Positions 4,694 to 34,649 of a stretch of DNA of 64,000 nucleotides are shown piece by piece. Within the stretch, counting starts at the first letter, position 1. Each line of letters begins with the position of its first letter. The translations under genes were made by a program, and so were the position numbers. The notes beneath the pieces were generated by a model. It was given only the letters and a program-made list of their open reading frames with translations. It ran no database searches and was not told the DNA's origin. The DNA is from Candidatus Poriferihabitaceae bacterium (GTDB taxonomy: Bacteria; Pseudomonadota; Gammaproteobacteria; Arenicellales; Poriferihabitantaceae): the NCBI GenBank assembly GCA_965249035.1, contig CBDFKV010000006.1:376729-440728 (forward strand), in the 5' to 3' direction.

Positions 4694-5509
4694 GTGCGGA
4701 CTATGCCTGAACCCATAGCCGGGCTAATCACCGCTGCTAAGGTTCACCCCGAATGGCAGCCGATTCTGGAAACCGCACTCGGCAAGATGGACACCAATTA
4801 TTTGGCATCCTTGCTTGCAGATAACAGCTGGCTTCCCGGCCAGCAGAATTTGCTCGCCGCCTTTCGGCGTGACCTTCAAGGTACACGGTATATTCTATTT
4901 GGTGAATCACCCTACCCGCGTTCAGAGTCAGCCAACGGTATTGCATTTTATGATGCAGCAGTTGGTAGTTTGTGGTCGGATTCAGGCTTATCGAAAGCGG
5001 TTAATCGTGCTACTTCCTTAAGAAACCTGATCAAAACACTATTGTTGTCCGAAGGTTTACTGAAGCCCGACAGCGCTGGCAAGATATCTCAAGAAAGTAT
5101 CGCCGAGATCGACAAATCTAATCTAATAAACAACATCTATCAATTATTTCAACAATTTGAAATAAAAGGATTTTTAATGTTGAATGCCAGCCCGGTGTTG
5201 CACCTCAACCGTAAACCTCAAGTAGAGGCACGCTATTGGCAGCCTTTTATTCAATGCTTGCTACACGAGCTGCCAAAATACACCAAGCCAGCACCCACTT
5301 TGGTGCTGTGGGGCAAAGTAGCAACAACAATAGAACACATTCCTGCAAGTACTGCTTTTCCGCAATTAACCGCCGAACACCCTTACAATATCTCATTCAT
5401 CCACAACCCCGAGATGCAACACTTATTCCAATCTCTGCAGCTACTAAAATCGTATCGACTTACACGTGGAAATGCCGCGCATGCCGAAAGTATCGCCTAC
5501 GATTGCTGA
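4694..5509 (+). CDS. Uracil-DNA-glycosylase-superfamily protein, an UNG-like paralog with a non-canonical motif
   Basis: 271 aa. The layout resembles family-1 UNG (HPEWQPIL...YL..L...LPG..N.LAAF...). The water-activating loop reads GESPYP where UNG has GQDPYH. Confidence 0.55.
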   Translation: MRTMPEPIAGLITAAKVHPEWQPILETALGKMDTNYLASLLADNSWLPGQQNLLAAFRRDLQGTRYILFGESPYPRSESANGIAFYDAAVGSLWSDSGLSKAVNRATSLRNLIKTLLLSEGLLKPDSAGKISQESIAEIDKSNLINNIYQLFQQFEIKGFLMLNASPVLHLNRKPQVEARYWQPFIQCLLHELPKYTKPAPTLVLWGKVATTIEHIPASTAFPQLTAEHPYNISFIHNPEMQHLFQSLQLLKSYRLTRGNAAHAESIAYDC

Positions 5510-5617
5510 TCTTGCGGGCAGTAAGGAAATAGTAATGGCACATTTTGCTGGAGCGATCCAACTTTGAAGCTTAGATCGATCAATCACCTGATTAAAAGCA
5601 ACTATTTCTCAAGGAGA

Positions 5618-6340
5618 TTAAGCTGGTTTAGCACTTCCTTGTTTGCGATACGCCGAAGAACGTCGATCACCGCCTTTGGGTAGTGGCGCGACAGGCCGCT
5701 TAAGTTGTGCCTGAATCCTTGCTCTAAAATGATCGTCGCCCAGCACCCAGGACTTATTGGTCATTTCTCTGATTTCTCGTAGCGTCTTGATCGGAATATG
5801 GGCATTGAACAAAGCGCGATAATTGTCAGATCTTTGCTCAGTGTTGCTGCCCAGTTCACTATACAGCGTGTGCGCCGTTATGAATGAACAAGGTTCACCC
5901 AACGCATTACACCTGAAACTCGACCACGGATATTCACCTGGATGATCAACCATCTCAGCGCGAACGGGGTTGCACTCAATATAGCGATAACAAACCAAGG
6001 CGTAGGTATCACAGTCGATCAATGTTGCTTTGTATCGGCCTTCCCAAAGCGTGCCTGTACGTTGATATTTGAAGTTGAAATACTGGACATAACCGCGGCC
6101 AATGGACTGAATCGCTTTGGATAAGCTGCCCTCAGCCTGAGGCGTAATCAGTAAATGCACATGGTTGGTCATCAACACATAAGCGTGTAGCTCGCAGGGA
6201 TATTTCTTAATCGCTTTTTCAAGCAGCTCCAAATACTGGTGATAGTCATCATCAGCAATGAAAATGGGCTCACGATTATTGCCGCGAATAATGACATGTT
6301 GTGGCTGACCGGGTAGGTTGTATCGAGGTTGTCGGGCCAC
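5618..6340 (-). CDS. REP-associated tyrosine transposase (RAYT) / IS200-like Y1 HUH transposase, copy 1
   Basis: 240 aa. It has the HUH motif in MTNHVHLLITP and a downstream Tyr helix YRYIECNPVRA. The N-terminus is PGQPQHVIIRGNNREPIF. Confidence 0.8.
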   Translation of the reverse strand: MARQPRYNLPGQPQHVIIRGNNREPIFIADDDYHQYLELLEKAIKKYPCELHAYVLMTNHVHLLITPQAEGSLSKAIQSIGRGYVQYFNFKYQRTGTLWEGRYKATLIDCDTYALVCYRYIECNPVRAEMVDHPGEYPWSSFRCNALGEPCSFITAHTLYSELGSNTEQRSDNYRALFNAHIPIKTLREIREMTNKSWVLGDDHFRARIQAQLKRPVAPLPKGGDRRSSAYRKQGSAKPA

Positions 6341-6350
6341 AGTGTTTAGC

Positions 6351-6420
6351 TGATTGTTGGAGTCAGGACATGCTAGCGAAGTCAGTCGATAAAATCAATC
6401 GAGTCTGACCCCATTGGTTT
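6351..6420. repeat. ~70-bp REP-like repeat, copy 1, containing a bulged hairpin at 6381-6409
   Basis: In my hand alignment, the 70-nt segment from tgattgttggagtcagg to ccattggttt matches 7647-7716 at about 60 of 70 positions. The hairpin is GTCAG-TCGAT / ATCGA-(GT)-CTGAC. Confidence 0.8.
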
Positions 6421-6799
6421 TCTTTTTGGGATTAGGATTAGAATTATTGATGAGTTCTAGTTCTTGCATCCCACTTTCCATTTTTTCATAAATTTTAGAT
6501 TTTTCTATATGTTCATTAATAAGGGGCATATATTTCTCTTTAATGTTATTGTCTTTAAATAAAATACCTCCAAAATCATTGAATATCTCATTTATAAATA
6601 TTGAGTTTTCATCTGCAAGTGAAAATATAAATATTGTTTTCAATAAAAATTTATTTACTCTTTCTTTTTCATTCTTATAATTCTTTAATTTTATTTTATA
6701 TATCCACCTCCAAATATCTTTTTCATCTGTTTTTGAGAAAAAGTACTCAGGGTAATGCCGAGCAAATAAAGTCAGTATCTTTAGTTTTTGTAGTGTCAT
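6395..6799 (-). CDS. Hypothetical protein (orphan ORF-A, AT-rich)
   Basis: 134 aa, Lys/Asn/Ile-rich, with no motif I recognise. It lies in a visibly AT-rich stretch. Its last codons and stop lie inside the 70-bp repeat. Confidence 0.45.
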   Translation of the reverse strand: MTLQKLKILTLFARHYPEYFFSKTDEKDIWRWIYKIKLKNYKNEKERVNKFLLKTIFIFSLADENSIFINEIFNDFGGILFKDNNIKEKYMPLINEHIEKSKIYEKMESGMQELELINNSNPNPKKKTNGVRLD

Positions 6800-6890
6800 C
6801 TCAGTAGTTCTATATGCATGGTAGAGGGCATGGGTCAGAATTTGTAGGCATCACCGGCGCAGAGGAACCTAAACCATCAAATAGATCAAT

Positions 6891-6920
6891 GAGAATTCCG
6901 GAGAATTCCGGGGAATTCCG
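6891..6920. repeat. 3 x 10-bp tandem repeat g(a/g)gaattccg, each unit carrying a GGAATTCC palindrome
   Basis: Read directly as gagaattccg gagaattccg gggaattccg. It abuts the left 19-bp inverted repeat of RAYT copy 2. Confidence 0.9.
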
Positions 6921-6938
6921 GGGACACAATACTTAATT
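6920..6938. repeat. Left arm of a perfect 19-bp inverted repeat bracketing RAYT copy 2
   Basis: ggggacacaatacttaatt is the exact reverse complement of 7621-7639 (aattaagtattgtgtcccc). This arm overlaps the RAYT stop codon. Confidence 0.9.
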
Positions 6939-7604
6939 ACCACGATCTACCTTCGGCCCGGGCCTCTTCTTTTTCAGATCACGACCTAAACAACGTCCAA
7001 CATGCTCAACAAATCCCACTGTGCCGAGTGGTCTGCCTGTGCGCTCATGTTGCATCAAAAGTTTATCATCCTGCTCAAGCGCGTCGCCTAGATAGGCTCG
7101 CCAATCACCCAAGTCCACAAATCGCTTTTCATAACCCGTGCTGACCAATCCACTAGGGTCAACACCGGCCAAATGCGCATGCACGCTACTCCATCGATAA
7201 TCCCAGGCCTGCTTCACCATCCCAGCTTTAACCGGGTTAAGCTCTACATACGCCAGCGTGTTAAGCAACCAGTGCTCATTCAGAACATACGAACTGAAAC
7301 GACCTTGCCATAAATACCCCGTCCAGCCTTCACGAAAATTAATTCTACGGGTATAACGTCGGTGGACTTCACCCACCGCTCGGCTCAAATTGGATGTCTT
7401 GCTTGGCACCAATACCAGGTGAACATGGTTGGTCATCAGACAATACGCTAGCACCTCTATCCCTTCCTCTGCGCACCATTGTTTGAGCAAAGACAGATAT
7501 GCCTGATAATCGCCTTCGTTAAAGAATACGTCTTGGCGACGATTACCCCGTTGAACAATATGGTGAGGATATTCGGGTAAAACGATTCGTGCGAGTCTTG
7601 GCAT
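6933..7604 (-). CDS. REP-associated tyrosine transposase (RAYT) / IS200-like Y1 HUH transposase, copy 2
   Basis: 223 aa. It has the HUH motif in MTNHVHLVLVP, a Tyr helix AYVELNPVKA, and the N-terminus PEYPHHIVQRGNRRQDVF. It is only distantly similar to copy 1. Confidence 0.8.
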   Translation of the reverse strand: MPRLARIVLPEYPHHIVQRGNRRQDVFFNEGDYQAYLSLLKQWCAEEGIEVLAYCLMTNHVHLVLVPSKTSNLSRAVGEVHRRYTRRINFREGWTGYLWQGRFSSYVLNEHWLLNTLAYVELNPVKAGMVKQAWDYRWSSVHAHLAGVDPSGLVSTGYEKRFVDLGDWRAYLGDALEQDDKLLMQHERTGRPLGTVGFVEHVGRCLGRDLKKKRPGPKVDRGN

Positions 7605-7620
7605 CAGTCGAGTATAACAT

Positions 7621-7639
7621 AATTAAGTATTGTGTCCCC
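7621..7639. repeat. Right arm of the perfect 19-bp inverted repeat bracketing RAYT copy 2
   Basis: Exact reverse complement of 6920-6938. Confidence 0.9.
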
Positions 7640-7646
7640 CGAACTG

Positions 7647-7716
7647 TGATAATTGGAGTCAGCTCATACTAGCAGGGTCAGTCGATCAAATCAATCGAGT
7701 CTGACCCTATTGGTTT
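7647..7716. repeat. ~70-bp REP-like repeat, copy 2, with a bulged hairpin at 7677-7705, followed by 13-bp tandem units ccctattggttt at 7705-7738
   Basis: Aligns to 6351-6420. The segment 7690-7712 is also the exact reverse complement of 8478-8500. Confidence 0.8.
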
Positions 7717-8252
7717 ACCCTATTGGTTTCATTGGTTTCAAAAGGAAATACAAAGGGTAACAATATTTTATCCTCGCTTTCATAAAATTTACGCCAGCTT
7801 TCACCAACTTTACCTGCAAACTCAGTTTCTTTTTGACTGGCAAGAGCAACAGCATCACCCCTACCTGAGTACTTGCTTAAGTTAGCAACCCGAACTAATA
7901 AACAAGCTGTTAGCCCTGTACTCCATTCTTCGTCACTCATTTCGTTCAAATCAAGGAAATACGGCACTCTCAAAATCAGCACTTTTTTTTGGCATATATA
8001 ATTAACATTCATCCGATAATTCCTTAAGACTATTATTTCTTTAATTGCTCCTTCAAGATCGCTCAAGGTAGATTTGCTAATCTTACGAATAACATCGATT
8101 GATTTTGCTAGATGATCCGCAATTTCTCTTTCTTCCGTATCTTGAGATTGCGAAGTTTTAATACTAATCTTACCCACAAGATTAATCTGTGATAAAGAAG
8201 TATTCACAGCTATTTTTAATAGTCGCTCGATGGTGGATTTAACTATTGACAT
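7707..8252 (-). CDS. Hypothetical protein (orphan ORF-B, AT-rich)
   Basis: 181 aa with no recognisable motif. Its C-terminus (ETNETNRVNQ) is encoded by the 13-bp tandem repeat. It is co-oriented with ORF-C, 11 nt upstream. Confidence 0.45.
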   Translation of the reverse strand: MSIVKSTIERLLKIAVNTSLSQINLVGKISIKTSQSQDTEEREIADHLAKSIDVIRKISKSTLSDLEGAIKEIIVLRNYRMNVNYICQKKVLILRVPYFLDLNEMSDEEWSTGLTACLLVRVANLSKYSGRGDAVALASQKETEFAGKVGESWRKFYESEDKILLPFVFPFETNETNRVNQ

Positions 8253-8263
8253 TAAGATGGGCT

Positions 8264-8449
8264 CTAATCAACTGGACGAGAAATTGTGGTTGGTTGACGA
8301 ACGGAAGGCTCCATATAATAAGGCTCAATACTGGTGCGATCAACCGTAAATGCCTCCCATAACCGAATTAATTGCACTGGATACTTAATGATCAAATTTG
8401 CAACTCCACGCCCAATAATGGCGCTTGAAACAGCAGTTCCACCAACCAC
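8264..8449 (-). CDS. Hypothetical small protein (orphan ORF-C)
   Basis: 61 aa with a GTG start. A 7-bp perfect hairpin lies just upstream at 8451-8468. Support for coding is weak. Confidence 0.25.
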   Translation of the reverse strand: MVGGTAVSSAIIGRGVANLIIKYPVQLIRLWEAFTVDRTSIEPYYMEPSVRQPTTISRPVD

Positions 8450-8477
8450 AAGAGGCTCTAAAGCCTCTCTACAATTT

Positions 8478-8500
8478 CAATAGGGTCAGACTCGATTGAT
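8478..8500. repeat. 23-bp inverted partner of the REP-like repeat
   Basis: caatagggtcagactcgattgat is the exact reverse complement of 7690-7712. It lacks the second hairpin arm. Confidence 0.85.
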
Positions 8501-8573
8501 ATTCATCCACGCACTGCATACCCCCGATGACACTAGAGATGATTGTACATCAGGGGCGGGAAGCTAGTCCAGT

Positions 8574-9457
8574 TCAGGCCGTGATCGTGTCGAGTGCCTG
8601 CTGATATTTATCGGCAGTGTGGTTAATGACCTCATCGGGTAGTTTCGGCCCGGGTGCGGTTTTATCCCAGTTCAGTGTTTCGAGGTGGTCGCGGACAAAC
8701 TGCTTGTCGAAGCTTGGCGGACTGGTACCGGTGGCATATTTCTCCGTAGGCCAGAAGCGGGATGAATCCGGGGTCAGTACTTCATCAAGTAAATACAACT
8801 TACCGTCATCGTCGAGTCCGAACTCGAATTTGGTATCGGCAATAATGATGCCTTTGGTGCGGGCATATTCAGAACCGTGCAGATAAATCTGAATACTCAG
8901 ATCACGCACTTTCTCAGCCAGTTTAGTGCCGATCATGTCGCACATGGTGGCGAAATCGATTTCTCATCGTGATCACCGACCGCTGCCTTGGTGGCGGGTG
9001 TAAAGATGGGTTCCGGTAATTGTGCAGCCATTTCCAGATCGGCAGGTAATTCGATGCCGCAAACAGCCCCGGTCGTCTGATAATCTTTCCAGCCAGAACC
9101 AATCAGGTAGCCGCGCACAACGGCTTCAACCGGTAACGGTTGTAAACGTTTGACTACGATGGCGCGTTCGCCTATTTCGGCACGTTCCACCGGTTTAGTG
9201 ATAACCGTTGTGAGGTCCAGATCGCTAAGGTGATTCGGTACGATACTAACGGTGCGGTCAAACCAGAAATTTGACAGCTTAGTCAGCACAGCGCCTTTAC
9301 CGGGAATCGGGTCAGGCAGAATGACGTCGAAGGCAGACAGGCGATCAGTGGTGACGATGAGTAAATGCTCATCATCCACGGAATAAATATCCCTGACTTT
9401 GCCCTGATTGATTTTTTCCAGACCAGATAAATTTGATTCGTAAAGTGCGCTGCTCAT
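8574..9457 (-). pseudogene. purC: SAICAR synthetase (long-form PurC) split by a 1-nt frameshift; may be a sequencing artefact
   Basis: The N-terminal ORF is 8933-9457 (KVRDIY...TDRLSAFD) and the C-terminal ORF is 8574-8945 (ADTKFEFG...LTPDSSRFW). Adding one A to the AAA run (plus-strand TTT at 8960-8962) restores ...[17 protein letters not shown]... in one frame. Confidence 0.85.
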
Positions 9458-24468: not shown

Positions 24469-24511
24469 CGATTTGCCCTCGTAGTAGTTTTACCCGCCTC
24501 TATTACACAAT

Positions 24512-25733
24512 GAGACCTCAGCATAACCGCGGGGTTTGATTGGTCTTGAAGAAATATCCTGAAAATTCTAAAAAATTAGCGAAATAAATCATTTTTATCA
24601 ACATACTCGGCCTAATATTGCGATATCCGTCGCTTTTCGGCATTTTTCTTCAATTCTAGACACAACTATCCCGCGTAACCGACATCGGGCAAACCATAAA
24701 GCATCAGAAATTTTGCGCCTTTACGTATATTGGACGCCATCGCTGCAATCCCGTAAGACGTTATATTCTTCGCTAGCCCCATATAGCGAGTTCTCGCTAA
24801 ACCATAGTGTTGCTTATAGGTTGCAAAGGGGCGTTCACCGCCAGAGCGTGTAACGGCAATCTGTGCATTACGTTTTTTATCCGACTCTGACAATGGATTA
24901 TTTCGATAGCCTTTTCGTTGGACCTGATCTTCAATCCCCAAGCCTTTTAGCTTAGTCCGCGTCTCTTCAGAGCTATAGGCAGAATCTGCAAATAACGCCG
25001 CCTCATCTCCTAACAATAAGGTATCGCGTTCCTGACTATCATGCACATTGCCAGCCGTGACATTTTGACGATGAATAAATCCATCTTCGTCCACGCCTGT
25101 ATGAACTGAATAACCGTAGGTGGACTTTGCTCGGCCACGACTGTCTTTCTTTACATGCCAGTCTGCTTCCTGATCACGCGTAGGCTTACCCTCTTTATTC
25201 TTACCTGAACCAGATTGAGCCGCCTCAATGGGCGTTGCATCTATGATGTTAATGCGCCCTTCGGTCATAATAATATTCTTAGATTCAAGTTGGCGGTTAA
25301 TCTCACCCAATAATTTATCCCATAAGTCATGTTCAACGAGGTTGTTGCGAAAACGCCCCAAGGTAGAAGCTTCTGGCACCTCTGCACCTAACTCAAGATG
25401 GCAAAATTTGCGAAATAATAGATCACGATAAAGACTTTGCGCCAACTGAACGTCTGATAGTTTGTACCATACGCCAAGCAACAAACTTCGAAACAGCGTC
25501 AGCAACGGATAACTCGGATGACCCGTGCTAGAACCATAGATTGAAGACATCAGACTTTCTAACTCCGACCAATCCAATAATGCCTCTGTATCGTCTAGCG
25601 AGCACAAAATAGGGTGACTCATCTCCGCGCTAGAAACAAATAGTCTGGGCTGTGTTGTGAATGATTTTTGCATGCCTGATTATAACATTTAGCAACTATT
25701 CGGTGAAGATTGGCTGAGTTGTGCTGAGGTCTC
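24512..25733 (-). mobile_element. IS5-family insertion sequence, complete copy 1
   Basis: The termini gagacctcagcataac (24512) and gttgtgctgaggtctc (to 25733) are inverted, 15 of 16 nt. The direct repeat ACAAT lies immediately outside both ends (24507-24511 and 25734-25738). Confidence 0.85.
24666..25673 (-). CDS. IS5-family DDE transposase
   Basis: 335 aa, colinear with my memory of the IS5 Tnp (YPLL.LFR...L..WY.LSD, IDAT.IEA, ADSAY, ERPF...K). Confidence 0.9.
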   Translation of the reverse strand: MQKSFTTQPRLFVSSAEMSHPILCSLDDTEALLDWSELESLMSSIYGSSTGHPSYPLLTLFRSLLLGVWYKLSDVQLAQSLYRDLLFRKFCHLELGAEVPEASTLGRFRNNLVEHDLWDKLLGEINRQLESKNIIMTEGRINIIDATPIEAAQSGSGKNKEGKPTRDQEADWHVKKDSRGRAKSTYGYSVHTGVDEDGFIHRQNVTAGNVHDSQERDTLLLGDEAALFADSAYSSEETRTKLKGLGIEDQVQRKGYRNNPLSESDKKRNAQIAVTRSGGERPFATYKQHYGLARTRYMGLAKNITSYGIAAMASNIRKGAKFLMLYGLPDVGYAG

Positions 25734-33401: not shown

Positions 33402-33444
33402 TCAAGTTTGAACTTCTATACCTGAGCAACTTAAACAACTGAAT

Positions 33445-34649
33445 GAGACCTCAGCATAACCGCGGGGTTTGATTGGTCTTGAAGAAATATCCTGAAAATT
33501 CTAAAAAATTAGCGAAATAAATCATTTTTATCAACATACTCGGCCTAATATTGCGATATCCGTCGCTTTTCGGCATTTTTCTTCAATTCTAGACACAACT
33601 ATCCCGCGTAACCGACATCGGGCAAACCATAAAGCATCAGAAATTTTGCGCCTTTACGTATATTGGACGCCATCGCTGCAATCCCGTAAAACGTTATATT
33701 CTTCGCTAGCCCCATATAGCGAGCTCTCGCTAAACCATAGTGTTGCTTATAGGTTGCAAAGGGGCGTTCACCGCCAGAGCGTGTAACGGCAATCTGTGCA
33801 TTACGTTTTTTATCCGACTCTGACAATGGATTATTTCGATAGCCTTTTCGTTGGACCTGATCTTCAATCCCCAAGCCTTTTAGCTTAGTCCGCGTCTCTT
33901 CAGAGCTATAGGCAGAATCTGCAAATAACGCCGCCTCATCTCCTAACAATAAGGTATCGCGTTCCTGACTATCATGCACATTGCCAGCCGTGACATTTTG
34001 ACGATGAATAAATCCATCTTCGTCCACGCCTGTATGAACTGAATAACCGTAGGTGGACTTTGCTCGGCCACGACTGTCTTTCTTTACATGCCAGTCTGCT
34101 TCCTGATCACGCGTAGGCTTACCCTCTTTATTCTTACCTGAACCAGATTGAGCCGCCTCAATGGGCGTTGCATCTATGATGTTAATGCGCCCTTCGGTCA
34201 TAATAATATTCTTAGATTCAAGTTGGCGGTTAATCTCACCCAATAATTTATCCCATAAGTCATGTTCAACGAGGTTGTTGCGAAAACGTCCCAAGGTAGA
34301 AGCTTCTGGCACCTCTGCACCTAACTCAAGATGGCAAAATTTGCGAAATAATAGATCACGATAAAGACTTTGCGCCAACTGAACGTCTGATAGTTTGTAC
34401 CATACGCCAAGCAACAAACTTCGAAACAGCGTCAGCAACGGATAACTCCGATGACCCGTGCTAGAACCATAGATTGAAGACATCAGACTTTCTAACTCCG
34501 ACCAATCCAATAATGCCTCTGTATCGTCTAGCGAGCACAAAATAGGGTGACTCATCTCCGCGCTAGAAACAAATAGTCTGGGCTGTGTTGTGAATGATTT
34601 TTGCATGCCTGATTATAACATTTAGCAACTATTCGGTGAAGATTGGCTG
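33445..34649 (-). mobile_element. IS5-family insertion sequence, copy 2, lacking the terminal ~17 bp at the transposase-proximal end
   Basis: It is colinear with copy 1 from gagacctcagcataac up to gattggctg, then diverges into the IS66-like end. The second IR is absent. Confidence 0.85.
33599..34606 (-). CDS. IS5-family DDE transposase (3 aa differences from the copy at 24666-25673)
   Basis: Direct comparison of the two 335-aa translations shows P/R at residue 53, and T/A and S/F near the C-terminus. Confidence 0.9.
   Translation of the reverse strand: MQKSFTTQPRLFVSSAEMSHPILCSLDDTEALLDWSELESLMSSIYGSSTGHRSYPLLTLFRSLLLGVWYKLSDVQLAQSLYRDLLFRKFCHLELGAEVPEASTLGRFRNNLVEHDLWDKLLGEINRQLESKNIIMTEGRINIIDATPIEAAQSGSGKNKEGKPTRDQEADWHVKKDSRGRAKSTYGYSVHTGVDEDGFIHRQNVTAGNVHDSQERDTLLLGDEAALFADSAYSSEETRTKLKGLGIEDQVQRKGYRNNPLSESDKKRNAQIAVTRSGGERPFATYKQHYGLARARYMGLAKNITFYGIAAMASNIRKGAKFLMLYGLPDVGYAG

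Follow-up and report, generated by a model that had tools for sequence, protein, structure and literature searches.

Layout of the locus

We analysed a 64-kb stretch of contig CBDFKV010000006.1 from Candidatus Poriferihabitaceae bacterium (hereafter the window; all coordinates are positions within it). The subject is an islet that carries two genes resembling REP-associated tyrosine transposases (RAYTs; REP, repetitive extragenic palindromic), three further open reading frames (ORFs) and several copies of terminal inverted repeats (TIRs). RAYT-like genes with long TIRs have been named TIRtrons and their proteins TIRYTs (Di Nocera, De Gregorio and Rocco, 2013; PMC3733652). One flank of the islet holds gshA (Pfam Glu_cys_ligase, 2.8e-157) and a gene for a uracil-DNA glycosylase (UDG)-like protein, and the other holds purC (SAICAR_synt), in agreement with the housekeeping flanks given in the initial annotation, a description of this DNA made from the letters alone. 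Its order of features on the − strand (ORF-C, ORF-B, repeat, RAYT-2, ORF-A, repeat, RAYT-1) is likewise borne out by the ORF coordinates. The ORF segments are AT-rich, as described there, with a GC content of 26-27% for the ORF-A segment and 38% for the ORF-B/C segment against 49% for the window. Overlooked at that stage were an inverted third TIR copy, RAYT-2's own inverted repeats, tandem tails at the repeats and a frameshift in purC. The features of the islet, including scores from a TIR profile hidden Markov model (HMM), are as follows.

5618-6340, − strand: RAYT-1, a 240-aa Y1/HUH tyrosine transposase of the TIRYT type, with motifs NHVH, WE and YIECNP
6351-6433, + strand: repeat block copy 1, made up of the RAYT-1 5' spacer, a truncated inverted arm (GTCAGTCGAT) and an intact (+) TIR at 6391-6420
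6395-6799, − strand: ORF-A, an orphan gene of 134 aa and 26-27% GC
6829-6845, − strand: possible decayed TIR (CATGGGTCAGAATTTG), read by eye at the GC-rich edge of the ORF-A segment (HMM 1.5 bits, E 25)
6893-6924, + strand: three tandem copies of GAATTCCGGRGA from a repeat search, a stutter of the outermost bases of the left TIR of RAYT-2
6916-6939, + strand: RAYT-2 3'-side TIR (TTCCGGGGACACAATACTTAATTA), overlapping the RAYT-2 stop codon
6933-7604, − strand: RAYT-2, a 223-aa TIRYT-type Y1/HUH protein, with motifs NHVH, WQ and YVELNP
7620-7643, − strand: RAYT-2 5'-side TIR, from an inverted repeat search and a 20-mer count
7647-7729, + strand: repeat block copy 2, from the repeat search, the TIR HMM and the predicted fold
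7705-7739, + strand: tandem iteration of the outer TIR end (CCCTATTGGTTTA / CCCTATTGGTTT / CATTGGTTTC), recognised by sequence, which encodes the ORF-B tail ETNETNRVNQ*
7707-8252, − strand: ORF-B, an orphan gene of 181 aa and ~36% GC
8264-8449, − strand: ORF-C, 61 aa with a GTG start, ending 11 nt ahead of ORF-B; its coding status is doubtful
8477-8503, − strand: solo TIR, inverted, 23/23 identical to the TIR of copy 2 (HMM 33.2 bits, E 2.5e-9)

Both RAYTs are Y1/HUH proteins

Both proteins matched the Pfam family Y1_Tnp (PF01797; cutoff 23 bits), RAYT-1 with 57 bits (2.8e-15) and RAYT-2 with 54.3 bits (1.8e-14). The match stops at residue ~122, beyond which each protein has a C-terminal extension; that of RAYT-1 terminates in a conserved GGDR(K/R)S. 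The translations and their alignment gave the motifs TNHVHLL, LWEGRY and YRYIECNP for RAYT-1, and TNHVHLV, LWQGRF and YVELNP for RAYT-2. Published motif criteria for TnpAY1 subclass 2.1 are NHVH or NH[YF]H, W[EQ], and YIELNP or Y[IV]HLNP, with Y---NP for class 2 as a whole (Table 1 of Quentin et al, 2018; PMC6006769). The two RAYTs had been described as alike in the family core alone, and they indeed align at 37% identity over the first ~157 residues only, which cover the catalytic core.

Other families fit less well. RAYT-1 and RAYT-2 scored 77.8 and 66.1 bits with the NCBIfam model REP_Tyr_transpos, under its cutoff of 80, and 21 and 23.9 bits with transpos_IS200, under its cutoff of 55, while both matched E. 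coli TnpAREP (PDB 4ER8) weakly (E 0.0014 for RAYT-1). Neither C-terminal extension gave a Pfam match to a helix-turn-helix (HTH)-like domain (Bac_DnaA_C, HTH_23, HTH_28) at E <= 0.1. Relatives of RAYT-1 were present in 21 of 72,556 plasmid records, all with less than 60% identity.

The repeat blocks contain a terminal inverted repeat

The initial annotation had reported a 70-bp repeat at 6351-6420 and 7647-7716 that matched at about 60 positions, and the two copies are equal at exactly 60/70. The similarity extends to blocks of 83 nt, with 67/83 positions equal (81%), and ends at the block edges. An alignment of all copies reduced the core of the repeat to a TIR of ~27 nt, AATCAATCGAGTCTGACCCCATTGATT. 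The bulged hairpin noted in both repeats folds as described (41-nt cores, −6.1 and −7.4 kcal/mol; z −3.2 and −3.6). We infer that this hairpin is a collapsed TIR doublet, in which a (+) TIR that is still intact pairs with an inverted arm that has been truncated; the short inner arms alone had no support from the profile HMM.

The window has three occurrences of an 18-nt core of the TIR (ATCAATCGAGTCTGACCC), where 0.01 would be expected, and the profile HMM also returned three significant copies in the 64 kb, in both cases all at this locus. The (+) TIR of copy 1 (HMM 37.5 bits, E 1e-10) sits 53 nt upstream of the RAYT-1 start. Copy 2 combines the same truncated arm with a (+) TIR at 7688-7715 and is separated by a 3-nt gap from the RAYT-2 TIR, with no RAYT-1-type gene accompanying it. 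The third copy, at the boundary in GC content towards purC, is inverted and identical over those 23 positions to that of copy 2, and ORF-B/C therefore lie between perfect inverted repeats. A 3' TIR of RAYT-1 near 5570 and a decayed TIR (GGGTCAGA) at 6832 had no HMM support and are possible at most, and RAYT-1 is without a significant 3' copy. RAYT-1 thus keeps just the 5' TIR, of the GGGGTCAG type, with two more copies nearby, one in the 83-nt collapsed doublet and one solo.

Two other identities for the repeats were considered and set aside. Classical REPs were ruled out by the absence of the GT[AG]G foot, since the repeats start with GGGGTCAG or GGGGACAC, and by the count of three copies in 64 kb, all within the locus. 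A terminator serving these genes was rejected because the T-run lies 3' of the hairpin on the + strand and all five genes are on the − strand; a terminator scan gave no more sites than shuffled sequence. An Rfam search of 5000-9000 returned no match.

The repeat accompanies RAYT-1 homologs in other genomes

A scan with the 18-mer, limited to one genome per species, gave at least 119 loci (L001-L119), the source genome not among them. Counts from these loci of doublets, flanked homologs and TIR tails, here and below, are counts among the matches listed. Carriers belong to the Gamma-, Beta-, Zeta- and Alphaproteobacteria and to Candidatus Electrothrix, and the matches listed also include metagenome-assembled genomes labelled Bdellovibrionia, Omnitrophota, Salibacteraceae and Gemmatimonadaceae. 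The 18-mer was not found in a viral contig collection, and a viral origin was rejected. Exact TIR strings gave no text match in papers or in the supplements of the key papers.

A relative of RAYT-1 or RAYT-2 adjoins the TIR in 25 of the at least 119 loci. Among the matches listed, 12 of the 15 full-length RAYT-1 homologs are flanked in the arrangement (−)TIR, gene, (+)TIR, with the GGGG end outward. Their 5' TIR is found 48-111 nt upstream of the gene start, a range that includes the 53 nt seen for RAYT-1, and the position of their 3' TIR relative to the aligned 3' gene end ranges from −11 to +27 nt. The 18-nt core is exact in all of these loci, whereas the associated proteins are merely 46-64% identical to RAYT-1 (15 full-length homologs; 54-64% for the 12 flanked ones). 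The TIR also occurs apart from genes, with 18 gene-free (−,+) doublets with short spacers among the matches listed.

The initial annotation had taken the repeats for REP-type substrates of both enzymes. The part of this proposal that stands is the association with RAYT-1, to which the core is cognate judging from its flanked homologs; the repeat is not a REP, and it is not common to RAYT-2.

RAYT-2 has its own repeat family

RAYT-2 is bracketed by a different TIR pair (6916-6939 and 7620-7643; 24 nt, 96% complementary) with the core GGGGACACAATACTTAATTA, and a 20-mer from it occurs exactly twice against 0 expected. We examined 40 metagenomic relatives of RAYT-2 (42-62% identity) that were picked by protein similarity and not by the repeat. 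Most are flanked by TIRs of the GGGGACAC type, many with a GGGGACACAATAC core, and the RAYT-1-type TIR was in none of the 40 loci; each protein subfamily therefore has its own TIR. From these sequence comparisons, positions 6916-7643 make up a complete unit of RAYT-2 and its own pair of GGGGACAC-type TIRs, and the 70-bp repeat belongs to RAYT-1, not to both enzymes. The NHVH and Y[IV]ExNP motifs together with TIRs starting in GGGGWSAS (GGGGTCAG, GGGGACAC) therefore identify both genes as TIRYT/TIRtron elements.

A remnant of such a unit was seen in one of the loci from the 18-mer scan (L022, 7600-7900), where GGGACACAATACTCAATTA and its inverse, the same TIR as at RAYT-2, persist on the two sides of a decayed RAYT-2-like gene fragment. 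Its TIRs carry duplicated tandem tails on both sides (GTGTCCCCAGAACTCC twice and TAATTCTAG twice).

These data also bear on whether the islet arose by an ancient tandem duplication of a single ORF-repeat-RAYT module followed by divergence, as the repeated module order and the position of each repeat block upstream of a RAYT might suggest. However, ORF-A and ORF-B are not homologous, similarity is confined to the 83-nt block, and the RAYTs are 37% identical compared with 81% for the non-coding blocks, which are younger (as the initial annotation had proposed) or more constrained than the split of the two transposases. In addition, the TIR pair of RAYT-2 is its own and is common to its relatives in unrelated metagenomes, and RAYT-2 is therefore an independent unit adjoining the block. 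The unrelated ORFs, the separate TIR family and the gap in identity between blocks and proteins already largely refute a duplication, and we consider it extremely unlikely.

Tandem tails at the outer end of the TIR

Copies of both TIR families often carry a tandem duplication of their outer end, with repeat units of 7-18 nt that take in the CCCC terminus. Such tails were found at 33 of 137 RAYT-1-type TIR copies among the matches listed, whereas the inner flanks had them in 4 of 137 cases and random windows in 2% (Fisher p 2e-7); for the RAYT-2-type TIR the figures were 10 of 56 copies and 2 of 56 inner flanks (p 0.03). The window has tandem tails at both TIR types (7705-7739 and 6893-6924), and the GGGAATTCCGGGAATTCCGGGGACAC tail of its RAYT-2 TIR recurs in L160, with similar tails in L125, L128 and L139. 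We found no text mention of tandem duplication at the outer TIR end in the cited RAYT/TIRYT literature. The far higher frequency at the outer end than at the inner flank or in random DNA points to a position of cleavage or slippage, and the duplications may mark the site of enzyme action or a hairpin-induced slippage.

ORF-A and ORF-B are probably genes

The open frame of ORF-A (144 codons) was reached in 0/2000 dinucleotide shuffles and that of ORF-B (186 codons) in 1/2000, and codon-position GC follows a coding pattern in both (GC1>GC2,GC3 for ORF-A). For ORF-C, the frame length is within chance (345/2000 shuffles). Proteins identical to ORF-A and ORF-B are present in a public collection, from a single contig, and each matches only itself among 5.8e9 clustered proteins; for ORF-B, a full HMMER pass over 1.84e9 representatives also gave the self-match only. 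Poor coding statistics and a lack of homologs had both been named in the initial annotation as findings that would tell against its view: the lack of homologs was found for ORF-A and ORF-B, and the poor coding statistics were not. As stated there, the three ORFs carry no recognisable motif (no Pfam, NCBIfam or PADLOC match; best PHROGs E 0.015-0.028). Structure prediction with AlphaFold2, proposed in the same place, was run for ORF-A and ORF-B but gave unusable models, with a predicted local distance difference test (pLDDT) score of 48.9 and 41.5, respectively. No homolog of ORF-A, ORF-B or ORF-C was detected by tblastn in 159 related loci (the 119 from the 18-mer scan and the 40 from RAYT-2 relatives), and co-occurrence of ORF homologs with RAYTs elsewhere was thus not observed.

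The 3' ends of ORF-A and ORF-B run into the repeats because the TIR holds an in-frame stop codon (NGVRLD*). The last six codons and the stop of ORF-A come from the TIR, and spurious ORFs at other loci end in the TIR likewise.

Alternatively, the AT-rich stretches might contain no genes and represent non-coding spacer or foreign DNA that has decayed. Such a view would accommodate the missing homologs, the low-confidence models, the resemblance of ORF-C to a chance frame and the fact that no clear ribosome-binding sites were seen by eye. However, frames of the length of ORF-A and ORF-B in DNA of 27% and 38% GC, with so few shuffles reaching them and with codon-position GC that looks coding, make it very unlikely. 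We consider that ORF-A and ORF-B are probably real genes. Their GC content, far lower than in the RAYTs and the flanking genes, makes a foreign origin probable.

A probable local cluster of two TIRtrons

We regard it as probable that the islet is a local cluster of two TIRtrons (TIRYT; TnpAY1 subclass 2.1; RAYT group 1), with lineage-specific AT-rich orphan genes in between that are not part of either unit. RAYT-1 and RAYT-2 would be resident TIRtrons, because their GC content is host-like. By analogy with TnpAREP and IS608 TnpA, an inverted TIR pair would fold into a hairpin, and the HUH/Tyr site of the RAYTs would cut and rejoin single-stranded DNA at the GGGG/CCCC foot of that hairpin. Such reactions may scatter TIR singlets and doublets, preferably close to the gene, and such activity could have left the duplicated doublet block and the solo TIR near RAYT-1. 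The tandem stutters at the outer TIR end would then be by-products of enzyme activity. The AT-rich genes would be bystanders of foreign origin, flanked by outer ends of TIR units in the way that arbitrary genes are in other genomes.

The neighbours of related elements are compatible with this role. The ORFs within 1 kb of 41 related elements (n = 114) include 119 Pfam families, none of them recurrent, the commonest being HATPase_c in 4 of the 114 ORFs. Where a (+) TIR is followed by a (−) TIR elsewhere, the interval encodes, from translations read by eye, an MFS-like membrane protein, an ABC-F-type ATPase or an ATP-synthase-gamma-like fragment. At one locus (L061) it holds an AT-rich orphan, with the TIRs 792 nt apart, and at another (L050) a MazE/PemK pair. 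A RadC-like JAB protein is beside the RAYT-1 homolog of L041 (7522-7974).

Several observations weigh against our interpretation. The first concerns toxin-antitoxin or toxin-type genes next to some RAYT-1 homologs. In L050 (4827-5605), a complete MazE-like/PemK pair (Pfam) is located between the 5' TIR of the homolog and a further TIR cluster; the pair is transcribed towards the RAYT and is the nearest parallel to the layout in the window, although it is a single case. A HicB-like antitoxin and a reverse transcriptase (L112, 2834-4297), a HipA-like kinase (L029, 3037-4485), and a haemagglutinin-repeat protein followed by a 218-aa AT-rich orphan (L060, 15-4491) each stand beside a RAYT-1 homolog. 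Second, the AT-rich DNA of both modules in the window is bracketed by facing outer ends of TIRs, which is certain for ORF-B/C and suggestive for ORF-A, and this regularity could mean more than coincidence. Third, the TIR copy count covers the 64-kb window, not the whole genome. Fourth, for the ancestral state of the UDG-purC interval, the nearest ortholog of the UDG-like protein is 63% identical and has different neighbours, so that no empty site is definable. Finally, no biochemical test of a TIRYT is reported in the cited RAYT/TIRYT literature.

The accessory neighbours are evidence for an addiction or defence module, in which ORF-A and/or ORF-B/C would be toxin-antitoxin, immunity or anti-phage genes that stabilise or accompany the RAYT locus; the operon-like spacing of 11 nt between ORF-C and ORF-B would suit a module of this kind. 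We judge it unlikely, considering that none of the three ORFs matched PADLOC, Pfam or NCBIfam or had a PHROGs match below E = 0.015, that ORF-A and ORF-B have neither homologs nor usable structure models, that ORF-C is no longer than a chance frame, and that the neighbours of related elements are mostly ordinary genes. Accessory genes adjoin a minority of RAYT-1 homologs, which suggests that the elements are often in variable regions, with no particular partner shown.

The facing TIR ends raise the separate idea of cargo capture, in which the RAYTs would cut out and relocate coding cassettes delimited by TIR copies, for instance through cleavage at two facing TIR feet. The inverted TIRs on either side of ORF-B/C do match perfectly over 23 nt, the fall in GC content is found at the outer ends of TIRs, and the orphan of L061 and the MazE/PemK pair of L050 are likewise between TIRs. 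However, the TIRs are oriented opposite to those of the canonical unit, with their GGGG ends pointing towards the ORFs, which places the ORFs outside the TIRtrons, and from the mechanism of IS608 an excised segment would have no TIR and would not be recognisable for reinsertion. Gene-free TIR pairs 150-1200 nt apart also show no excess of the (+,−) orientation (4, against 4 in the same orientation, among the matches listed), such intervals elsewhere hold arbitrary genes, and no ORF homologs were found elsewhere (tblastn in the 159 loci for all three ORFs, protein collections for ORF-A and ORF-B). We therefore give cargo capture little credence. In a further variant, TIRYT enzymes would swap or capture whatever DNA lies between two inward-facing feet by cutting neighbouring TIR units at their GGGG/CCCC feet. 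HUH-made cassettes of this kind would include the MazE/PemK pair of L050, the orphan of L061, ORF-A and ORF-B/C, and the tandem stutters would be scars left by rounds of cutting and ligation at such a foot. We mention it as a highly improbable, speculative scenario.

The initial annotation had offered cargo capture or a small defence or addiction module as explanations of the islet, and neither is upheld for ORFs that have no homologs, lie outside the TIR units and belong to a setting with no recurrent neighbour. Its interpretation as a whole is partly supported. The two-TIRtron cluster that we favour makes this locus one more example of the described TIRYT/group-1 RAYT elements, with the proposed link to cargo having no comparative support.

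Flanking genes and other repeats in the window

purC (8574-9457) is read in two overlapping frames, which cover positions 2-126 and 137-230 of the SAICAR_synt profile, with a frameshift near 8933-8962. The expected purC reading would be recovered by adding one base back to the T3 run at 8960-8962, which is an A-run on the coding strand, and the split is either a homopolymer sequencing error or a recent pseudogene. The UDG-like protein (4694-5509) scored ~43 bits against a cutoff of 186 and is far under the cutoffs of all NCBIfam UNG models. It has more than 2500 relatives at E <= 1e-20 that public sources name uracil-DNA glycosylase, and it appears to be a distinct branch of the UDG superfamily.

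Two further repeats lie outside the islet. The segments 24509-25716 and 33442-34649 are direct copies of 1208 nt, 99.7% identical, that encode a 335-aa transposase-like protein that looks IS5-like. They are 8.9 kb apart with about five genes between them and could form a composite transposon. At 307-768, a 231-nt unit is present in two tandem copies (80% identity); its length is divisible by 3, so that the unit may correspond to a repeated domain of a protein.

Comparison with known systems

With its same-strand orphan ORFs alternating with a structured repeat, the islet superficially resembles an integron cassette array or a composite transposon. It differs in that no integrase gene was seen in the islet and no GTTRRRY core sites are present, the repeat is the TIR of a transposase-like gene, and the ORFs lie outside the inverted-repeat units. 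An integron-like reading was accordingly rejected, as the repeat lacks attC core sites and the comparative data show a transposase TIR.

IS200/IS605 elements share the Y1/HUH core fold and the recognition of hairpins in single-stranded DNA. The islet departs from them in having the Y---NP motif instead of Y---Q, IS200 scores of 21-24 bits against the cutoff of 55, inverted-repeat ends instead of distinct left-end and right-end hairpins, no tnpB, and two divergent single-copy genes in place of identical IS copies. The REPIN-RAYT or REPtron systems (E. coli TnpAREP, Pseudomonas REPINs) are closer, with the same catalytic superfamily, cognate inverted copies flanking the gene, REPIN-like gene-free doublets and a proposed chemistry on single-stranded hairpins. 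Here, however, there is no GT[AG]G foot, a TIR of ~27 nt takes the place of a short GC-rich palindrome, three copies are found in 64 kb, REP_Tyr_transpos scores are under the cutoff and the match to 4ER8 is weak.

Most TIRYTs fall in TnpAY1 subclass 2.1, which has the HUH motif NHVH, W[EQ], the tyrosine motif YIELNP, a median length of 238 aa and no REP, and whose subclass 2.1.2 is heterogeneous in the C-terminal region (Quentin et al, 2018; PMC6006769). This subclass corresponds to RAYT group 1, for which the flanking 16-mer occurs ~12 times per replicon and which is rare on plasmids (Bertels et al, 2017; PMC5581495). RAYT-1 and RAYT-2 (240 and 223 aa) agree with it in NHVH, W[EQ] and a YIELNP-like motif, in a length close to 238 aa with a C-terminal extension, and in lacking a canonical REP; the wide occurrence in Proteobacteria, the low copy number and the rarity on plasmids are also shared, and three TIR copies in 64 kb fit the low-to-moderate abundance reported for group 1 (PMC5581495). 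The reported HTH-like C-terminal domain is a possible point of difference, being undetected by Pfam at the threshold given above.

The closest match is the TIRtron. GGGGWSAS is present in many TIRtron TIRs, whose families are moderately abundant and consist of singlets, dimers and groups (PMC3733652). The islet has Y1/HUH RAYT-like genes with long terminal inverted repeats that start with GGGGWSAS and are not GTAG REPs, a TIR that overlaps the 3' end of the gene (RAYT-2 in this case), and TIRs that also occur as singlets, dimers and small groups; several TIRYT genes per genome, each with its own TIR, are possible in both. The window differs in that two different TIRtrons adjoin with AT-rich orphan genes between the units, that the 3' TIR of RAYT-1 has been lost, and that a copy of the RAYT-1-type 5' spacer and TIR abuts the RAYT-2 unit. 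TIRYT genes are an already described class of domesticated single-strand-DNA transposase genes, and an 18-nt TIR core that is exact across proteins of 54-64% identity and several classes provides a defined substrate for a first biochemical test of a TIRYT.

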